Assembly (NCBI GenBank): GCA_039698055.1
Contig: JBDKTL010000021.1
Span: 32,001 to 96,000 of the forward strand
DNA from: Methanoregula sp.
GTDB lineage: Archaea > Halobacteriota > Methanomicrobia > Methanomicrobiales > Methanospirillaceae
Reading direction: 5' to 3'
Length of the DNA stretch: 64,000 nt
A program made the position numbers and the translations under genes. Shown here piece after piece: positions 55,381 through 64,000 of the stretch. The stretch's first letter is position 1. Every line of letters begins with the position of its first letter. The notes beneath the pieces were generated by a model. That model did no database searches. It was not told where the DNA came from and worked only from the letters and a program-made list of their open reading frames with translations.

Positions 55381-55849
55381 AGACAATGATCTCCTGCTCT
55401 TATCGGATATAAAAGCGGTTGATAGGCTGGAACGGGGCCGGTATCAACCGCTACGGGTTTGATTTTAAAATATTTCAGGAATGCAGGGATGTATTTTTCC
55501 ACTTCTTTTTATTTTGAAATGCCCGACCATTTAATCATCTGAATCGGCTATTGAGCAAATTATCGTAACAATCAGTCAGGTTTGGCAGGCCAGGGTTTTG
55601 GCCTGGGACATTCATCATAACGACAATGGTTTCATCCACATCAAAATTGGTTTTCCATTGGTTGGAGATAAAAATACCATCCTCTGTTTTAACAACATAA
55701 AAAAAGATTTTTCTCACATCCCAAAATTTGCAACAACAACCAAAATTTATTTACCCTCCCACTCCACGAAAGCCTGTTTTAATAGGGAATTTTTTTTTAA
55801 TCAAACCAAGGAACAGAGAATACAGGATTTTTTGTAGTAAGGAGTGTTT

Positions 55850-57301
55850 ATGACCGAAAATAATGTGGCAAAAACAAAAAAAATCACGGGAACAAAAAAA
55901 CCCGTCAGTTTAAAGATACTGGGCGTCTTTGCCCTTGCGATGATCAACGTCGCCGCAGTGCTGAGCATCAGGAATTTTCCCTCGATGGCTGAGTTCGGGT
56001 GGTCGAGCATAGGATGGTATCTTGTCGGGACCATCCTGTTCCTTATCCCGATCTCCCTCGCCGGTGCCGAGCTTGCCACCGGGTGGCCTGAAGGGGGAGG
56101 TGTCTATGCATGGGTCAAGCAGGCGTTCGGGGAAAAAGGAGGGTTTATCGCAATCTTCTGCGACTGGTCCAACAACCTTGTCTGGTTTCCCACCGTGCTC
56201 GCCTTCATCGCCTCGACCCTTGCTTTCGTTATCACGCCGGATCTCGCGAATAACCCGGTCTACATGCTCAGCGTGATGATGATCGTGTTCTGGGGCACCA
56301 CCTCAATCGCCTACTTTGGACCCGACGTAACCGCAAAATTTTCCAATGTTGGCGTGATCCTCGGAAGTATCGTCCCGATCGGCATCATCATCATTTTCGG
56401 GACCTGGGGGGTAATTACCGGGGCTGCAACAGCACTTCCCGCTTTTTCGGCGGGTGCAATAATCCCTGTCATTAACTTTGCAACATTGTCATTTTTTGCA
56501 ACCATCATTCTCATGTTTGCCGGGATGGAAATGGCCGGGTTCCATGCGCTTGAGACCAAAAATCCCCAGAAGGACTATCCAAAGGCAATCGCAATCTCGG
56601 CACTTATCATTTTTATCTGCTCGGTTCTGGGGACACTTGCCATCGCGTTTGTGATCCCGACCGCCAAGCTCGGTCTTGCATCCGGGGTCATGCAGGCTAT
56701 CCAGTACTTCTTTGTGACGGTAAATCTCCCGTGGCTCGTTGCGCCGATGGCAGTACTGGTAACGATTGGCGGGGTGATCCTTCTCGCTGCCTGGCTTATC
56801 GGCCCGGCAAAAGGTCTCGGTGTTGTGGCACTTGACGGGAATATGCCCCCGATGTTCAACCGGCACAACAAGTATGGATCGCCCGTTGGGATTCTTGTCA
56901 CCCAGGCGCTCATCGGTTCTGCAATCTCGCTCCTGTACGTCATTTTGCCCTCGGTCAACCAGGCATACTGGATCATGTCGGCCATGACCGTCGAACTGCT
57001 CTGTATCATGTACGTGCTGGTCTTTGCCGCCCTGATCAAGCTCCGGTACAGCAAGCCAAATCAGCCACGGCCGTTTAAGATTCCCGGCGGAATGGCAGGG
57101 ATCTGGATTGTCGGTGGTCTTGGAGGAATCGGCGTTATATTCGCATTTATCGTCGGCCTGATCCCCCCGGCGATTTTCCCGAATGCCCCTCTCTATGTCG
57201 GATCGGTGCTGCTCGGGACATTCCTGCTTGCGGTACCACCGCTTGTCTTTATGAAATTCAAAAAACCGTCATGGGCCATAGCAGAGGACCAGGAAAATTA
57301 A
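55850..57301 (+). CDS. APC family amino acid permease (GadC/YjeM-like)
   Basis: VAAVLSIRNFP, AELATGWP.GGVYAWV, FAGMEM, NPQKDYP and RPFKIPGG motifs. GGAG RBS. Confidence 0.88.
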   Translation: MTENNVAKTKKITGTKKPVSLKILGVFALAMINVAAVLSIRNFPSMAEFGWSSIGWYLVGTILFLIPISLAGAELATGWPEGGGVYAWVKQAFGEKGGFIAIFCDWSNNLVWFPTVLAFIASTLAFVITPDLANNPVYMLSVMMIVFWGTTSIAYFGPDVTAKFSNVGVILGSIVPIGIIIIFGTWGVITGAATALPAFSAGAIIPVINFATLSFFATIILMFAGMEMAGFHALETKNPQKDYPKAIAISALIIFICSVLGTLAIAFVIPTAKLGLASGVMQAIQYFFVTVNLPWLVAPMAVLVTIGGVILLAAWLIGPAKGLGVVALDGNMPPMFNRHNKYGSPVGILVTQALIGSAISLLYVILPSVNQAYWIMSAMTVELLCIMYVLVFAALIKLRYSKPNQPRPFKIPGGMAGIWIVGGLGGIGVIFAFIVGLIPPAIFPNAPLYVGSVLLGTFLLAVPPLVFMKFKKPSWAIAEDQEN

Positions 57302-57494
57302 CTAAAAATCGTGGAAAAACAGCCGCCCGGTCCGGGACCCGGGCACTGTTTTCTCTCATGTGCTCAAGAATTGCGGTAGACTTTTTTTAGGTCGGAACAA
57401 CAATTAAAACGCCTCGCAATTGAGCTTTTTTTATCAGGATATGAAGGATTGGCCGGACAGTAGTGCGGGACTATTTAAAAAAAATCAGATTGCA

Positions 57495-58211
57495 TCAGAG
57501 AAGTTTTTTATACCGGTGCCGGTAGAATTCCCCGGCATGGTACACCATCACGCTGACTTCTTTTCCCCGGGAAAAATTTTGCATCTGGCATTCATGCGTG
57601 GCCGGGTCATGCCGGAGATCGTGCACGGTGAAGTATTCATGCAGTGTTTCAAGAAATGAAATCTGCTGGGCGAGGAATGCGTTTTCATATTCCTTGACCT
57701 TCTGGGCGAGCGCGGTGCAGTCTTCAGGGGACAGGGCCTGGTCAGATCGCCCGTGCTTGTTTTTCCGGGCGAACTTCAGCCATGTGGCTTCTCCCGTCAC
57801 ATCGACACTGCGGCGGAGCATGTGGGGATAGATACGGCATCCGGAAAATCTCCGGTCGTAGATACGGCACCGGCCTTCATCAAGGAACCAGCAGGACCCG
57901 CCGGTACGATCGTTCATCCGGAGTGCATACCCGGAAACATACAGCATGCCGTTCTGGTCGCAGAACTCAGGGTCCGGCGCGGGTTCGTACGCCGCAGGAT
58001 CGATCTTTTTTACTTCGTTTACATCATGCTCAAGGAGAAAGATATGGGGGTTGACTGCCCGTTTACAGCACGCCCCGCAGCAGTCACACCCAAACCCCGT
58101 GGCCCGGATCTCCATTGCCAGGTGTTCAAGCGGGTAGGCAAAGAGGCGGTTTTGCTCCTGCATCATGGCGATGATGCGAAAGGGAATAGGAACATCCTGG
58201 GAAGTGGCCAT
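57495..58211 (-). CDS. YkgJ family cysteine cluster (CxxCxxCC) protein
   Basis: CDCCGACC...CWFL...CRIY..R...CRIYP. TGATG coupling to the upstream gene. Confidence 0.8.
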   Translation of the reverse strand: MATSQDVPIPFRIIAMMQEQNRLFAYPLEHLAMEIRATGFGCDCCGACCKRAVNPHIFLLEHDVNEVKKIDPAAYEPAPDPEFCDQNGMLYVSGYALRMNDRTGGSCWFLDEGRCRIYDRRFSGCRIYPHMLRRSVDVTGEATWLKFARKNKHGRSDQALSPEDCTALAQKVKEYENAFLAQQISFLETLHEYFTVHDLRHDPATHECQMQNFSRGKEVSVMVYHAGEFYRHRYKKLL

Positions 58212-59074
58212 CAGGCTCCCCCCCATGGGTGCCCGGCGGGACAATCATAATCAATACCGGTAATGGTATACTCCTCGCAGGCATGTTTACCATCGGGAAG
58301 AACCATGTCGGAAGTAATCTGCAGGGGAACCTGGTATCCCCCGATATTTGTATATCCGAAATACCGTTGCCGGAAATGGCCGGATGCCCCGGTTCCCTGT
58401 TTCTGGAAATCCTCGGAATCTATCCCGATACTCTCGATCTGGCCCCGGCTATCGAACCCAAAGAGCGCCCGGGCACTCAGATCGCCATCGTGAATCGTAG
58501 CCTTTGCTGTCGAGTCATCAACCGGTTCCCAGGTAATTGAACCCGAAGAGGAAAGTGCGATGGGGAAGAAAGGAATGCTTGCAAGGTAGCGGAAAAGCGA
58601 GCCTGTTTTTATCCTGCTGCTGTGGGAATTATTGAGCGGCAAAACCGAAAACAGGTTGAGTTTTACTGCCGCGTCTCCATGGACATAGTAATCGAAGGCG
58701 TCTATCCAGATCATGGGAGCAAAGGCAATTTTTGCATGCCAGGTAAATCCCGGCGTTGAACACGCGAAGATTGCCTCGCCTTTGGTTTTCATCCATCGTC
58801 CCTTTGCGCCGAACCGTGTTCTTCCCGTATAATGGACACGTGCACAACCAGCCGGATGTGAATTCTTGCCAATGGCCCATGTCAGGTAGCGGGAGACCGG
58901 TCCGGGAACGGTGAGAGGTGGTGCGGCATTGGGAAACCGGGCATAAAAAATGATCAGGTAAAGGTAGTGAATCTGTTCCCGGGCAAAAAGGGAAAAGATC
59001 TTGCCCCCGACGATGATAATAAAGAGAGAAATCGAAATGAAGATAATTATCCCGGCAAGTGCCTCAGAAAGCAT
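58211..59074 (-). CDS. Membrane-anchored DUF6544/DUF6920-like protein
   Basis: N-terminal TM helix with P.PV.RYL, PGFTW.A, LFRYLA..PFFP and ITWEPVDD.TAKAT pattern. Overlaps mscS end. Confidence 0.65.
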   Translation of the reverse strand: MLSEALAGIIIFISISLFIIIVGGKIFSLFAREQIHYLYLIIFYARFPNAAPPLTVPGPVSRYLTWAIGKNSHPAGCARVHYTGRTRFGAKGRWMKTKGEAIFACSTPGFTWHAKIAFAPMIWIDAFDYYVHGDAAVKLNLFSVLPLNNSHSSRIKTGSLFRYLASIPFFPIALSSSGSITWEPVDDSTAKATIHDGDLSARALFGFDSRGQIESIGIDSEDFQKQGTGASGHFRQRYFGYTNIGGYQVPLQITSDMVLPDGKHACEEYTITGIDYDCPAGHPWGGA

Positions 59075-60116
59075 CAGATCCCCCCGGTTTTCGCAGCCGG
59101 ACATCAACCTGGCGGAACGGGATCTCGATGTTTTCTTCTGTAAATCTCTGGGCGATGCGGTCATTCATAAAGTCCTTCACGTCCCATGAATTATCGTAAT
59201 TATTGGTCCAGAGGATGAGCTGCCCGTTGAGGCTCGATTCACCGAATTCGAGAAAATACACCGCGGGTACGGGATCGGTCAGGACCCATGGGGTTTTTTC
59301 TGCGGCTTCGCGGGCGATCGAGAGCAGAAGTTCCTTGACCTTTTTCATGTTGGAACCGTAGGCAACCGAGAACGGGATCCTGACTTTCATCCGGACATCC
59401 GGCATTGCATAATTGATGATGATGCTTGTGGTGATTTTAGAATTGGGAACCGTGACAAACAGGTTATCCAGCGTTTTGATACGGGTGCTTCGCGGTCCGA
59501 TGCTGATAACATCCCCAAAATGTGTGTCGATCTGTACCCGGTCGCCGATCCGGAATGGCTTGTCAACGGCAATGATTGCTCCGCTGAAGAAATTGCCAAG
59601 AATGTCCTGTGCGGCAAGAGCAAGCGCAATGCCGGCGATACCTGCGCCTGCAAGGAGAGGAGTAATATCGATCTGAAATTCGGCAAGAATGAGAAGAAGC
59701 GCCACAAACCAGATCAGGTATTTTGCAATCGCCTCAAGGATTGGAATAAGCCGGTCGTCAAGATCGGTTTTTGTCTTTTCTGCGATGCTGTTGGCATACG
59801 TATGAATAAGATTATAAGAGAAAACCGAGGTAATCCAGGCGCCAAGGATAATAAATACCGCATTAATCAGGTGGTCAGTTATCAGCCAGGAAAGGTACGC
59901 AGGGACAATATCGTAACGGGTCAGGGCAATGTAGATCGAAACAGCAATGATCGCGACGACCAGCGGTGTCCCGACTGCATTGAGGATAATATTATCAAGT
60001 TCGGTCTCAGTTTTGTCAGCTTTCTTTTTAAGCCAGATAATTATTCCGTGAACCACGCCGGCGAGGATAAACCCGGCAACAATGGTAACAGCGGCGGAGA
60101 AGAAGCCGTTTTCCAT
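59064..60116 (-). CDS. mscS: Small-conductance mechanosensitive channel
   Basis: LLAGAGIAGIALALAAQD..N, KPFRIGD, RSTRI.T.DN, VPNS, VAYGS and IEIPFRQ motifs. Confidence 0.92.
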   Translation of the reverse strand: MENGFFSAAVTIVAGFILAGVVHGIIIWLKKKADKTETELDNIILNAVGTPLVVAIIAVSIYIALTRYDIVPAYLSWLITDHLINAVFIILGAWITSVFSYNLIHTYANSIAEKTKTDLDDRLIPILEAIAKYLIWFVALLLILAEFQIDITPLLAGAGIAGIALALAAQDILGNFFSGAIIAVDKPFRIGDRVQIDTHFGDVISIGPRSTRIKTLDNLFVTVPNSKITTSIIINYAMPDVRMKVRIPFSVAYGSNMKKVKELLLSIAREAAEKTPWVLTDPVPAVYFLEFGESSLNGQLILWTNNYDNSWDVKDFMNDRIAQRFTEENIEIPFRQVDVRLRKPGGSDAF

Positions 60117-60175
60117 TACGACACCTCCGCTGTCTGTACCAGCTCATTAAAGGAAATATTCATGCGTTTTACCTC

Positions 60176-61015
60176 TCACAATTTTTTATACCAGACGTTC
60201 ATGCTCTCAAGATTCCCGCAGATGTTTGTATTATTGGCAAGCAGCCCGCCGTACTGGTAGCCGGCAGCGGCAAATAGTGTATTTATGGGACGGGATATCG
60301 CCCGGGCGATGGTATATGCCAGCAGGATTCCCTCGCCCTGCAAACATGTCTCCATCGCCCGGAGGAGATTACTGGCAAGACCATATCCCCGAAACCCCGG
60401 CCCGGTGGCAAAATCGGTCATCTCTGCATGGCCTTGCGCGGTATTGACCTCGCAGGAAGCAACTGCCGCCAACTGACGGCCGGGTGCCCGGACGATGAAA
60501 TACCGGATCGAACCCCGCATGGTCTCCCGGATATATTCCGGATCAAAGACCGGGAACGGGTACGTTTTAAAAACAGCACGGTACAGAGCAGTTATCTCCT
60601 CTGCATCCCGGTCCTTTGCAGGTTCCAGGAAATACCCGTCCGGCAGCACAGCGTGCGATGCCATGCTGGCATTGATTAAAGATGCCGACAGGACATCTGC
60701 AAGAATGGTTGAATCATGGATAATGGACCGGTCGGGTTTGCCATACTTTACCATAAATATTGCAGGCTCTTTACCCCGGAAAAAGAAAGGGACCGTCGCT
60801 TCTGGAACATACCCGTTATCGAGAAACTGGTCAACCGATGATGCCGGTACCTTGACAAAAATTTTGGAATATCCTTCCTGTAAACAGAGGTCATCGGCAA
60901 ACCGGATAATATCCGGGATGTCGTTTGGGGCAAGTTTCATCACGTAGACCCGGTTGTTGTGATGGCCGTGCTGGATTACGCTGTTTCCCCGGTGCAGCAC
61001 ACCATCAGTCTGCAT
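60176..61015 (-). CDS. ablB: Beta-lysine N6-acetyltransferase
   Basis: [37 protein letters not shown] and [15 protein letters not shown] motifs. Overlaps ablA. Confidence 0.9.
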
Positions 61016-62465
61016 TATCCTGCCTCCGTTCGATCCGGTCGTTGTTCTCCGGGGTGAGGGTGGTGGTTGTATCATAATCGGAGAGCAGTTTTGCCACGCC
61101 GACAACTTTTGATTCGTCAGCCCGGCTGGTGTTCAGCTGCAGCTTGCATGCGGCACAGTCACCGTTGCAGAATATCCGTTCATAGTGGGCCGGTTCCTGG
61201 TACGTGCAGATGACCCCTTCGTAATTCCGGAGCACGACCTTGTGGACAGACCATGTCAGCAGGTAATTGGGAAACACAGGAATTTTCCCGCCACCGCCCG
61301 GTGCATCGATCACGTACCGGGGAACGGCAAAACCGCTGGTATGCCCGATCAGGTTCTCCATGATCTCGATGCCTTTGGATACCGGTGTCCGAAAATGGCT
61401 GATGCCTTCGGACAGGTCGCACTGGTAGAGGTAGTAAGGGCGGATACGGTTCATGACAAGCTGGTGGACGAGTTCTTTCATAATCCGCGGGCAGTCGTTG
61501 ATCCCGGCCAGCAGTACCGACTGGTTCCCCAGCGGAATACCGGCATCGGCAAGTTTAGCAATTGCCGCCCGGGCGGATACGGTCATCTCCTTTGGATGGT
61601 TGAACTGCGTATTGACCCATACCGGATGATGCTTTTTTAAGACGGCGACAAGATCGTCTGTAACCCGAAACGGCAGGACGACCGGTACCCGGCTCCCGAT
61701 CCGTATAACTTCCACGTGCGGGATGGCACGGATTTCAGTCAGGATCCAGTCAAGGTAATCGTCGCTGAGCATGAACGGGTCTCCCCCGGAGAGGAGGACA
61801 TCCCGGACCTGCGGGTTGTTCCGGATATATTCAATGCCTTCGAGGATTTTTTCCCGGTCCGGTATCGAGTCCACGTCGCCGACTTTGCGTTTCCGGGTGC
61901 AGTGCCGGCAGTACATCGCACAGGTATTGCTGACAAGGAAAAGGACCCGGTCCGGATACCGGTGGGTGATGCAGTCGCACGGGCTGTCTTTATCTTCGGC
62001 GAGCGGGTCGGCAAGTTCGTAATTTTCGACAATCAGTTCCTGCGGCGAGGGGAACGCCTGTTTGAAAATGGGATCGTTCTGGTAATCGTTCACATCGATG
62101 AGGGAGAGGTAATACGGGGTTATGCTGAGCGGGAACTTGTCGATCGTTTTCTGGATCTGCTCCCGGTTTTCCAGGGAAAAGGTAATTCCAAGTACCTGCT
62201 GGAACGTGTCGAGATCCCGGATGGTATGACGGATCTGCCAGCGCCAGTCCTTCCAGTAATCCGGGGTATTTTCCGGCACCCGGATCTGCCGGATCATGCC
62301 GGGGTCCCCGGACTGTTCCGCACCGTAATAATGTCCCTTCAGGAGAGAGACAATATCCCTGACAGAATTTTTAACCTGCCCGCTCAGGTTTTCAAATGAC
62401 AGGGCACCATCGCCGGAAATTGAGGACTGCCGGGCTCCTTTGAGGGTAGCCGGTTTTTTTATCAT
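61005..62465 (-). CDS. ablA: Lysine 2,3-aminomutase
   Basis: [29 protein letters not shown] and IDAPGGGGK (both substrate Asp residues and the PLP Lys), C-terminal Zn-binding Cys cluster. Confidence 0.93.
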
Positions 62466-62479
62466 ATAAATGCACCCCC

Positions 62480-63604
62480 TTAGAACAGCCACATCTTTTT
62501 TGGCTCGAAATCGGTCAGGGCATGACGGTAATCGTCAAACCAGCGGGCATCCGGATTACTGCGGAATACCATGAACTTCCCGATATTTGCAGCATCGGCT
62601 GCCTGGTGATACCGCATAAATACGTGTTTTGCGGTCTTTCCCACGACTTCAATCTTCCCGGTTGCATGCGACATGACAAACCGGGCGCGTTTTGCTACAC
62701 CCGAACATTTCTGCCAGGCGGTCTGGATCATCTGGTACGACTGTTCCACCGGTACCTGGAAGAACCGGTTGCCGGTCGATGGCCGGCACTGGAACACGTA
62801 ATACGGGGAGATGCCGGAAAATGAGAGGCTCTTAAAGAGATGAGTGAGCACGTCCGGATCGCTGTTGACACCCTGAAGGATCGGTGTCTGGCTGACGACA
62901 GTAACACCGTTTTTCTGCAACTGTTCTGCTGCACGGATCGAGACATCCGAGAGTTCCCGGGGATGGTTGAAATGCGCCATCAGGTATACCCGCTTTTCCG
63001 GGGTGCTGTATCGCGAGAACATCGAACAGAGATTTGGATCATCAAGTATCCGGTGCGGGTTGTAGGCGAGCATTTTGCTGCCGATCCGGATCACATTGAC
63101 ATGACTGATCTCGCGAAGTTCCTTTAACGTCTCCTCGAGTTTGCGGGTTTCAAGGGTCAGCGGGTCGCCGCCGGTCAAGAGAACGTTGGTAATTTCCTTA
63201 TGTTCGCGGATATACTCAAGCCCGCAGGAAATATCCTTGACGGTTTCACGCTCCTTGTTCATAAAGAGCCGTTTGCGGAAACAGAAACGGCAGATGCCAC
63301 CGCAGACATCGGACATCATCAAAAGCGCAGTCTGGTCGTACTTGTGCTGGAGCCCGGGCTGCCGGGTAAAATCTTTCTCGCGTGACGGGTCAAACGATCC
63401 CTGCCCGTCTAATTCACGGAGGTCCGGGATCACGATTTTACGGATCGGGTCATCCCGGTCTTTCCAGTCAATGAGAGAAAGGTAATACTCGTTTGCCCGG
63501 AAGGGGAATTTCTCACAGACTTTTTCCATGTCATTGCGTTCACGGGGAGTGAAACCAACGAGATTATCAAGTTCGTCAATAGTACTCAGGTATTTCGTAT
63601 GCAT
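62480..63604 (-). CDS. Second KamA-family radical SAM/PLP aminomutase-like protein, substrate unknown
   Basis: [35 protein letters not shown] and FVMSHATGK motifs. GAGGT RBS. Confidence 0.85.
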
Positions 63605-64000
63605 CGTCAAACCTCACTTTTTCTTAAGGATTTTCCCTGATTTTACAAGCAGGGCTCAGTGGCACGCAAAAACTACAGATTACCAGTAAAGGATACAGAT
63701 TGTATGAGTGGCGCCACTTAAGTAAAACCTATTTTGACCCGAGTGTATAAAACCTTTCCGGGAACAGCGAGTGCAAAGCTTTCCGAATGCGAAACAGACA
63801 ATGCAAAATAGCCCGATTGAGAGCAATTGAAGACAGATCAATGGAGTATGGGCAAATGTGCCGCCTGTTATCCATTTTTTCAAGAATTCGTCATCATTTT
63901 GGTGTTCTTCGTGATTGTGGCGTTCAGAATACCGGGGGTGAAGTGCTTTTTATCGTACGGTATTACCGGCTGACCCCGCAGACGGATGACGGCAGTTAAT

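Follow-up and report, generated by a model that had tools for sequence, protein, structure and literature searches.

The abl operon of a Methanoregula sp. is headed by a second KamA-family gene, here called PAR, which by sequence comparison is a member of a large, deep and unnamed KamA subfamily, apart from the clade that holds lysine 2,3-aminomutase (LAM) and glutamate 2,3-aminomutase (Eam). As judged from alignments, its pocket is devoid of both acidic residues that bind lysine, and a cationic residue takes the place of Asp293. We tentatively propose that PAR, encoded in a stress operon, is an amino acid 2,3-aminomutase dependent on PLP and [4Fe-4S]/SAM, acting on a substrate other than lysine and most likely converting L-glutamate to β-glutamate, a reading to which we give somewhat less than an even chance.

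Structure and transcription of the PAR-abl cluster

In the window (the whole stretch of 64,000 nt that was analysed), six tightly packed genes lie on the minus strand from 63604 to 57495, in the order PAR, ablA, ablB, mscS, DUF6920 and CxxCxxCC (Table 1). The reading frame of PAR is intact and runs from an ATG at 63604 to a TAA at 62482-62480, followed by a spacer of 14 nt (GGGGGTGCATTTAT) and the ATG of ablA; the start, stop and spacer, read directly, bear out the preliminary description, which had placed a second KamA-family gene first in the operon, 14 nt before ablA. AblA exceeds the cut-off of the lysine 2,3-aminomutase equivalog model TIGR03820 (778.8 bits, cut-off 525.4) and matches LAM_C (PF12544) with 142.2 bits. 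From its ATG on, ablB shares 11 nt with the end of ablA, and these adjacent equivalogs (778.8 and 314.5 bits, respectively) constitute an abl operon; mscS follows ablB after a gap of 59 nt. Matches to TIGR03820, TIGR03827 and the MscS Pfam families support the further claim that two aminomutase-type genes share an operon with ablB and mscS. The start of the DUF6920 open reading frame overlaps mscS, its true start being probably near 59074. A hairpin lies between the cluster and a GadC-like permease gene, which is convergent to the PAR-abl operon. A genome search found only two KamA-family genes in this Methanoregula, PAR and ablA.

Table 1 Features of the PAR-abl cluster and its flanks, in window coordinates
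Feature	Coordinates	Strand	Description
Promoter element	63746..63757	-	Archaeal BRE/TATA-like, AAAGG(G)TTTA block; invariant in 14 aligned upstream regions
5' leader	63605..63728	-	Conserved and structured, ~120 nt; long-range helix P1, hairpin P2
PAR	62480..63604	-	KamA-family radical SAM/PLP protein of the QCRP / MSHxxGK subfamily, without LAM_C, 374 aa
ablA	61005..62465	-	Lysine 2,3-aminomutase, 486 aa from ATG 62465; TIGR03820 and LAM_C
ablB	60176..61015	-	β-lysine N-acetyltransferase; TIGR03827 314.5 bits, cut-off 205.1
mscS	59064..60116	-	MscS-type mechanosensitive channel, 350 aa; PF00924, PF21082, PF21088
DUF6920	58211..59164	-	DUF6920/DUF6544 protein with N-terminal hydrophobic segment
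CxxCxxCC	57495..58244	-	CxxCxxCC (PF03692) protein, last gene of the cluster
Hairpin	57324..57345		G+C-rich hairpin, then T-run on both strands; consensus scan only

In the helices of the leader 91-92% of cells are paired, compared to 31-50% with the partners slid, and compensatory changes were found in 9/15 pairs (14 sequences) and in 12/15 pairs (23 distinct sequences). The same RNA stands before PAR in nine genomes and before ablA in one, and has no match in Rfam; it is a candidate rare archaeal cis-regulatory RNA, in which anti-SD pairing is possible. The RNA evidence consists of RNA-library contigs from one wastewater sample: contigs of 3706 and 3122 nt span PAR, ablA and ablB, the contig ends lie at 63708 and 63678, and at 63779-64000 RNA depth is zero and DNA depth flat. 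The abl operon of methanogens is salt-induced. In a review, ablA and ablB are described as adjacent and overlapping also in Methanosarcina and Methanococcus. Literature searches returned nothing on a KamA paralog in an abl operon, on a second aminomutase in Methanoregula or Methanoculleus or on MJ0634, and a search on KamA substrate specificity yielded nothing relevant to the PAR subfamily.

Cofactor residues, substrate pocket and place in the KamA family

PAR carries the cluster motif C101xxxC105xxC108 followed by FRKR, and G316-K317 at the PLP-lysine position; the assignment of K317 as the PLP lysine rests on the GK motif, just past the end of the profile-profile alignment of PAR with AblA (hhalign; probability 100, E 5.8e-92, 306 columns). 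The sole PDB sequence match of PAR is 2a5h (E 9.1e-51), in which Asp293 and Asp330 bind the ε-amine of lysine. In the alignment to 2a5h (residues counted from the printed coordinates), Arg274 stands opposite Asp293 and Asp249 opposite the Zn ligand Cys268, while hhalign sets 'RFVMSHATG' of PAR opposite 'RYVIDAPGG' of AblA, bringing Ser312 opposite the second Asp; at this place PAR has Ser312-His313. The domain search found no LAM_C (PF12544) match in PAR, and its translation has no Cys downstream of Lys317. The preliminary description had noted the retained CxxxCxxC, Arg-rich stretch and GK, the replacement of both lysine-binding Asp and the missing C-terminal Zn Cys cluster, all of which hold in these comparisons. 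PAR keeps the cofactor residues but has other residues in place of the lysine-binding Asp and no Zn/C-terminal domain; it would not act on lysine, and its product is probably a β-amino acid other than β-lysine.

The signature of the subfamily is CFRKR / QCRP / MSHxxGKxE. Across 30 diverse members the three Cys, R110 (the carboxylate Arg), D147 of GGD and K317 are invariant, and at least 90% of these members retain R274, S312 and G316; among 44 PAR-type representatives, 34 keep Arg at the Asp293 column. PAR passes the generic KamA model alone (TIGR00238; 212.2 bits, cut-off 199.2, and 212.9 bits in the genome search) and none of the equivalog models, that is, those for lysine 2,3-aminomutase (TIGR03820; 220.8 bits, cut-off 525.4), arginine 2,3-aminomutase (TIGR04468; 215.7 bits, cut-off 600), Eam (TIGR04368; 214.3 bits, cut-off 650), AblA_like_2 (TIGR03822; 199.8 bits, cut-off 396.25) and EpmB (TIGR03821; 178.4 bits, cut-off 369.3).

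The canonical clade (support 0.985) includes the Eam clade (support 0.974) but excludes PAR. Its placement in a deep, widespread, separate subfamily refutes an origin as a local paralog derived from AblA; the phylogeny check also puts it outside the known Eam group, with Arg/Ser-His instead of the Lys/Asn of Eam, the clade and the residues both being counted against glutamate. Four short representatives of the canonical clade (P0197, P0200, P0187 and P0242) have Asp at both pocket columns and score below the TIGR03821 and TIGR03822 cut-offs. A 635-aa fusion (P0233), considered as a Methanocaldococcus type, was dropped, its relatives being bacterial Eam proteins with LAM_C.

A charge-reversed pocket had been taken to indicate an acidic substrate. 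The Eam equivalog P0250 (693 bits to TIGR04368, cut-off 650; glutamate 2,3-aminomutase by its NCBI name) has Lys/Asn in the pocket columns, the residues that clostridial Eam has in place of Asp293 and Asp330. There is thus a precedent for a cationic residue here in an enzyme for glutamate. However, PAR-type proteins fused to NRPS condensation, ATP-grasp, AMP-binding or Lys/Orn N-monooxygenase domains retain the Arg, which therefore need not mark glutamate and may be a feature of the clade instead. Glutamate is a plausible substrate, at a little under an even call, and β-glutamate is possibly the product.

Distribution, gene neighbourhoods and rival reactions

Searching with PAR, 7511 of 8000 candidates were found at E≤0.001, and 7134 at E≤1e-40 in a profile search, canonical KamA proteins being included in both. 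PAR-type proteins with source names are called 'KamA family' or, loosely, 'lysine 2,3-aminomutase' only, and the ESM Atlas clusters carry the 'KamA family' label only. At E≤1e-100 PAR is present in 132/201 sampled Methanomicrobiales genomes, and orthologs occur also in many anaerobic bacterial phyla; cultured carriers include Methanospirillum lacunae Ki8-1, Methanoculleus sediminis and Kosmotoga. In 3/5 PAR-carrying bacterial genomes there is in addition a presumably canonical KamA gene. The control genomes of Methanocaldococcus jannaschii and Thermotoga maritima contain a KamA-family gene, with no LAM_C match and no Eam equivalog in either genome. The known accumulators of β-glutamate include Methanocaldococcus jannaschii, Methanotorris igneus, Methanothermococcus thermolithotrophicus and Thermotoga.

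The linkage of PAR to ablAB is lineage-specific and recurs in three gene orders, and the majority of PAR genes are unlinked to ablAB. Among 82 neighbouring proteins no conserved partner or enriched Pfam family was found (top count 2), which, together with the frequent stand-alone PAR, fits a product made by one enzyme. Genes of stress and osmotic functions recur: at L016 and L033 PAR and mscS occur together in the absence of ablAB, genes for Usp and a Na/H exchanger being close by, and trehalose synthase and trehalose phosphatase genes lie directly upstream of PAR at two deltaproteobacterial loci. A DUF6920-like gene comes after mscS also in L027 and L028, and a CxxCxxCC-family gene stands directly after PAR in L035 and L047 and at the cluster end in L028. 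The recurrence of such genes supports the preliminary description; the missing link to ablAB in most cases does not. Many PAR carriers come from freshwater, wastewater or groundwater; these, and the sugar-transferase locus of Pirellulales, were counted against the proposed reading.

Some neighbours are related to glutamate, namely Na:dicarboxylate/GltP-like symporters near PAR (two loci), GluRS upstream of it (three related ANME-2 loci), formiminotransferase-cyclodeaminase downstream (one locus) and the GadC-like permease convergent to the Methanoregula operon, and weakly support glutamate as the substrate. Their number is small, and glutamate takes part in many pathways as a hub metabolite. 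A candidate MfnB gene, upstream of PAR at L058 and L061, was rejected, as it encodes UMP kinase.

Alternatively, PAR may act as a 2,3-aminomutase on some other amino acid without a basic side chain (such as glutamine, 2-aminoadipate, alanine or an aromatic or further polar one), and would provide, depending on the lineage, a β-amino acid building block for a solute, an exopolysaccharide decoration or a non-ribosomal peptide. This we regard as rather unlikely, while acknowledging that the same cofactor residues are retained and that a pocket of Phe, Arg, Ser and His would also suit side chains that are polar or aromatic. Directly behind the third Cys stands a class-specific residue, Thr in lysine enzymes, Gln in Eam and Phe in 42/44 PAR-type proteins, and the contexts of PAR are varied: besides the condensation, ATP-grasp and AMP-binding fusions, it lies in a sugar-transferase locus with a TIGR03790 family protein at three Pirellulales loci, and adjoins an NRPS A-T gene at L105. 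However, the simplest reading of an Arg in the distal pocket is that it pairs with an anion, PAR usually stands alone and often beside ion or osmotic genes, and the review passages name no β-amino acid solutes besides β-lysine derivatives, β-glutamate and β-glutamine.

It is improbable that PAR is not an aminomutase at all but a radical SAM enzyme of KamA fold that catalyses a different reaction, or a modifier of a macromolecule, with a housekeeping role where it is universal. PAR is found in all sampled genomes of three genera, g18 (Methanoculleus, 37/37), g16 (12/12) and g19 (9/9), in which it adjoins origin-associated Oap genes and stress genes were not seen nearby. Its PLP-site region also deviates from that of canonical enzymes: the Gly loop before the Lys is shorter, the HRYPDR motif has an invariant Thr in place of its Arg, and the HFRTP His is not conserved. 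On the other hand, the subfamily retains the carboxylate Arg and, without exception, the candidate PLP Lys, which fits a free amino acid as substrate; PAR is patchy within other genera (7/15 in g1, 14/34 in g25), and identities between archaeal and bacterial members exceed 50%, as fits an accessory, transferable trait.

A role inside the N-ε-acetyl-β-lysine pathway, as an acetyl-lysine enzyme, a second lysine aminomutase of other stereochemistry or a non-catalytic partner of AblA, would suit the position 14 nt upstream of ablA, the RNA contigs common to both genes, the three gene orders with ablAB and an Arg that could hydrogen-bond the acetyl carbonyl, but it is very doubtful, since AblA (E≤1e-100) is missing from 51/132 PAR-positive Methanomicrobiales genomes (hand count) and from the named isolate Methanospirillum lacunae, which has PAR, AblA occurs without PAR in 11 genomes, ablA, ablB or mscS is found at 0/39 non-Methanomicrobiales PAR loci, and both lysine-binding Asp are gone. 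As AblA-only and PAR-only genomes both exist, neither gene needs the other.

Proposed role and comparison with known systems

Returning to the glutamate reading, PAR as the first gene of the stress operon would be transcribed from one promoter, behind the structured leader, with ablA and ablB and then mscS, and would convert L-glutamate to β-glutamate in one step, needing no partner enzyme. β-Glutamate would serve as a metabolically inert anionic counter-ion of K+. The position of PAR at the head of an operon with ablAB and mscS suggests that the operon would yield two β-amino acid solutes, with MscS as a release valve.

According to a review (Roberts 2005), methanogens use α- and β-glutamate below about 1 M NaCl and switch to N-ε-acetyl-β-lysine above. 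The same review reports that early NMR labelling excluded the formation of β-glutamate by a glutamate aminomutase in a methanogen, and proposes a hydroxyglutaryl-CoA route on the basis of a personal communication. The β-glutamate reading of the operon, already put forward in the preliminary description, has two results against it, this older labelling study and NMR data on Methanoculleus (strain BA1), a genus in which every sampled genome has PAR. No gene for the conversion of glutamate to β-glutamate in methanogens is named in the review passages, nor was a later paper naming one found. The reaction of PAR, if assigned, would either fill that gap or show a new β-amino acid. The branch is very large within a well-studied enzyme family, and a single assigned reaction would cover all of it. 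A bolder and unlikely extension would be that the QCRP / MSHxxGK branch is the missing β-glutamate synthase of methanogens and many anaerobic bacteria, a second, independently evolved glutamate 2,3-aminomutase, with the leader in Methanoregula and relatives acting as an undescribed archaeal riboswitch-like sensor of an osmotic signal or of the product.

Compared to lysine 2,3-aminomutase (KamA/AblA, 2a5h, TIGR03820), PAR shares the superfamily, domain core, CxxxCxxC, GGD, carboxylate Arg and the Lys at the PLP position, and its radical amino-migration chemistry is probably the same. It differs in the replacement of Asp293 by Arg, of the second Asp by Ser and of the Zn ligand Cys268 by Asp, in the lack of LAM_C, in the shorter Gly loop and in its separate clade. 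With Eam (TIGR04368), which the literature ties to osmoprotection as a target of a Na+ riboswitch, it has in common a cationic residue in place of Asp293 and a neutral one in place of the second Asp, whereas the residues themselves differ (Arg/Ser-His in PAR, Lys/Asn in Eam), as does the residue after the third Cys (Phe and Gln, respectively), and the relatives of Eam carry LAM_C, which PAR does not. The names of many named Eam carriers, and nothing else, suggest halophily or alkaliphily. EpmB/YjeK (TIGR03821) and AblA_like_2 (TIGR03822) are short KamA-family proteins as is PAR, and the Escherichia coli control suggests that EpmB, too, is without LAM_C. The PAR-abl cluster agrees with the abl operon of methanogens in its adjacent, overlapping ablA and ablB, and extends it upstream by PAR and the structured leader and downstream by mscS, DUF6920 and CxxCxxCC, resulting in a compact model that combines a pair of radical aminomutases with an acetyltransferase and a mechanosensitive channel.

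PAR and its substrate pocket

PAR, the KamA-family paralog encoded by the first gene of the abl operon, has Radical_SAM as its sole Pfam match (31.3 bits). It passes the generic KamA model alone (212.2 bits against a cut-off of 199.2) and fails all five specific models, with near-equal scores of 178-221 bits, each far under the respective cut-off. The sole PDB sequence match of PAR is a lysine 2,3-aminomutase (PDB code: 2a5h; E 9.1e-51), and by positions counted along this alignment Arg274 of PAR stands opposite Asp293 and Asp249 opposite Cys268. A profile-profile alignment of 30 PAR-type with 15 canonical sequences (probability 100, E 5.8e-92) placed 'RFVMSHATG' of PAR on 'RYVIDAPGG' of AblA, therefore Ser312 takes the place of the second Asp; the Gly loop ahead of the Lys is two residues shorter in PAR than in AblA. 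The preliminary description had stated that PAR lost both lysine-pocket Asp residues and the C-terminal Zn Cys cluster. The two alignments, with Arg274 and Ser312 at the pocket positions, and the Pfam search, in which PAR gave no LAM_C (PF12544) match, bear this out. In the 2a5h enzyme, Asp293 and Asp330 bind the lysine ε-amine. In P0250, a real glutamate 2,3-aminomutase (Eam; 693.1 bits against a cut-off of 650, its cluster mates being named glutamate 2,3-aminomutase by NCBI), Lys and Asn fill these two columns. The cofactor residues, the carboxylate Arg and the invariant Lys are all kept in PAR, which argues for a working aminomutase that would act on a free amino acid, while, with both Asp residues gone, PAR is ruled out on sequence grounds as a member of the lysine family.

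A scan of 1.84 billion representatives yielded 4450 matches at E<=0.001, and many of the best 150 of these align to PAR over its full length with 35-56% identity. The common signature consists of a Phe after the third Cys (CFRKR), YYxFQCRP and (F/A)R(Y/F)xMSHxxGKxE. Among 30 diverse members C101, C105, C108, R110, D147, R173, K317 and W355 are invariant, and R274, S312 and G316 are conserved in >=90%. In a FastTree phylogeny of 83 sequences, gathered with PAR as the query and after removal of seven aberrant rows, the 39 canonical proteins (Asp/Asp types and the Lys/Asn Eam group) form one clade (support 0.985), the remaining 44 being PAR-type. The Asp293 column of these 44 holds Arg (34), Met (7), Lys (2) or Ser (1), the two groups having been named partly by the same motif that was later counted. 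Judged by its sequence, PAR is a member of a large, separate subfamily. For PAR-type proteins, the source names seen go no further than 'KamA family' or a loosely applied 'lysine 2,3-aminomutase'.

In fusion proteins (P0159, P0171, P0124 and P0232) PAR-type domains are combined with a D-Ala-D-Ala-ligase-type ATP-grasp domain, with an NRPS condensation domain, or with an AMP-binding region and RidA; a Lys/Orn N-monooxygenase is the fusion partner of an Arg-Asp variant. Because of these fusions the PAR-type branch is predicted to feed natural-product pathways as well. Many source names among the relatives of canonical Eam suggest halophily or alkaliphily (Thermohalobacter, Caldisalinibacter, Clostridiisalibacter, Haloimpatiens, Natronincola, Alkaliphilus); taken as names alone, they would fit a bacterial β-glutamate osmolyte role.

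The operon, its leader and its presence in RNA libraries

Six consecutive ORFs, separated by overlaps or short gaps, make up the cluster, and the second KamA-family gene described earlier as ending 14 nt before ablA is indeed found there. AblA (TIGR03820, 778.8 bits) and AblB (TIGR03827, 314.5 bits) are clear equivalogs, and apart from PAR and ablA the 2.26-Mb assembly contains no KamA-family gene. The close homologs carry source names that indicate Methanoregula.

Features of the PAR-abl cluster and its surroundings (window coordinates)
Feature	Position	Strand	Remark
Promoter block and ~120-nt structured 5' leader	63605-63757	-	upstream of PAR
PAR	63604-62480	-	374 aa
ablA	62465-61005	-	14-nt gap from PAR
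ablB	61015-60176	-	11-nt overlap with ablA
mscS	60116-59064	-	59-nt gap from ablB
DUF6920/DUF6544 protein	ORF 59164-58211	-	overlap with mscS
CxxCxxCC (PF03692) protein	58244-57495	-	final gene of cluster
Hairpin then T-run	57324-57345		end of cluster
APC-family permease	55844-57301	+	convergent to operon

At two loci (L035 and L047) the CxxCxxCC family directly follows PAR with no intervening ablAB, and for this reason the CxxCxxCC protein may be a partner of PAR, e.g. by transferring electrons or by acting as a modifying enzyme. The convergent permease scores best on GadC glutamine/glutamate:GABA antiporters, at 417 and 405 bits, each under its cut-off, and neither of two close relatives inspected showed it beside the cluster. 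Just past the window end at 64000 lies an ion and stress neighbourhood (L003, 8094-17151 of G000:C21) with a divergent Na/H exchanger, a cupin protein, a CitMHS transporter, a PAS histidine kinase and a Kef-type exchanger with TrkA domains.

In fourteen PAR upstream regions a BRE/TATA-like block is invariant and a leader of about 120 nt is conserved. RNAalifold and single-sequence folds of this leader give a long-range helix of 9 bp and, immediately ahead of the ribosome-binding site, a hairpin of 6 bp; weak pairing may occlude the site. In the MAFFT alignment 91.0% of cells are paired, against 31-50% with partners slid, and 9 of 15 pairs show compensatory changes, values reached by none of 500 shuffles. 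The model-fitted alignment of 23 distinct sequences, which leans towards the structure, gives 91.9% paired and 12 of 15 pairs compensatory. Searched with a covariance model, 10 of 151 order-level and 9 of 61 family-level genomes gave a leader match, each as a single copy. The order-level matches lie directly upstream of PAR in nine genomes, in one of which PAR is located after ablB, and upstream of ablA in one; in the family-level sample, two further genomes have the leader upstream of PAR, and one weak match (E 0.0077) has neither PAR nor ablA nearby. The leader has no match in Rfam. We consider it a candidate for an archaeal control element, riboswitch-like or translational, and the RNA may itself be novel.

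Two metatranscriptome runs from one wastewater sample contained 95% of the words sampled from the stretch. Two of their contigs, one of 3706 nt (60004-63708) and one of 3122 nt (60558-63678), are free of differences from the stretch and both span the PAR/ablA and ablA/ablB junctions. Depth is zero at 63779-64000 in both RNA runs, while depth in the DNA run stays level near 350. This shows the PAR-ablA-ablB stretch in the RNA libraries of this sample, with a 5' limit near the predicted promoter; a single transcript and expression levels are matters beyond contig data.

Distribution and gene context

In a hand count from search tables of 201 Methanomicrobiales genomes, a PAR ortholog (E<=1e-100) occurs in 132, besides one fragmented copy and one at 39% identity, and AblA (E<=1e-100) in 93; 81 genomes have both, 51 PAR only and 11 AblA only. 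PAR is universal in the sampled genomes of some genera (Methanoculleus, 37/37; g16, 12/12; g19, 9/9) and patchy elsewhere (7/15 in the window's own genus, 14/34 in Methanocorpusculum). Beyond the order, orthologs with 50-57% identity are found in ANME-2/Methanosarcinales, Thermoplasmata and Thorarchaeota MAGs. Many anaerobic bacterial groups have orthologs too, among them Planctomycetota, KSB1, Calditrichota, Nitrospinota, Deferribacteres, Desulfobacterota-type lineages, Acidobacteriota, Thermoleophilia and Kosmotoga. Methanospirillum lacunae Ki8-1 (G237, L110), cultured and with a complete genome, has PAR and no AblA at E<=1e-20, and is therefore a convenient organism for the PAR product. At L117 (G224:C130, 1590-2858) the ortholog is split into two tblastn pieces (residues 1-148 and 166-374) and so may be frameshifted or interrupted; the leader upstream of it is intact.

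Among the best 80 loci from reference genomes, the 41 with Methanomicrobiales-type titles include ablA in 13, ablB in 12 and a window-like mscS in 6; none of the three genes occurs in the other 39. The linkage to ablAB takes three arrangements: PAR-ablA-ablB(-mscS), ablA-ablB-PAR and divergent. PAR-mscS also occurs in the absence of ablAB, at two Methanoregula-type loci; at one of these it is flanked by a universal stress protein and a Na/H exchanger. Elsewhere no conserved partner emerged, the top Pfam count being 2 among 82 neighbouring proteins. Individual contexts are still suggestive. In two deltaproteobacterial loci PAR is directly preceded by genes for trehalose synthase and trehalose phosphatase, two loci contain Na:dicarboxylate/GltP-like symporters, and three related ANME-2 loci have glutamyl-tRNA synthetase upstream. 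Formiminotransferase-cyclodeaminase lies downstream at one locus, an NRPS A-T gene is present at one locus, and three Pirellulales loci combine a sugar transferase with a TIGR03790 family protein.

Candidate substrate of PAR

The simplest reading of the Arg and Ser-His in the pocket is that they accommodate an anionic side chain, and by the parallel with the Eam pocket glutamate would be the leading substrate candidate. A one-step product would fit the stand-alone distribution of PAR, and its use as a solute would fit the recurring stress context. A review (Roberts 2005) describes glutamates in methanogens at moderate salt and acetyl-β-lysine at high salt, a switch that would make sense of the combined operon. 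However, the same review states that labelling excluded a glutamate aminomutase, and NMR of Methanoculleus is reported to give only betaine and acetyl-β-lysine as dominant solutes. The Arg is clade-wide, natural-product fusions included, which counts against glutamate, as does the place of PAR outside the Eam clade. The acidic substrate proposed in the preliminary description keeps the putative anionic site and the Eam parallel in its favour, with labelling, clade-wide Arg and phylogeny contrary to it. For these reasons and the Methanoculleus solutes, we propose only tentatively, at somewhat less than even chances, that a non-lysine aminomutase in a stress operon makes β-glutamate; that PAR is a non-lysine aminomutase is, taken alone, quite probable.

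We found no paper on the PAR-type subfamily or on a third aminomutase-type gene in an abl operon, in a literature collection that includes only a minority of subscription journals.
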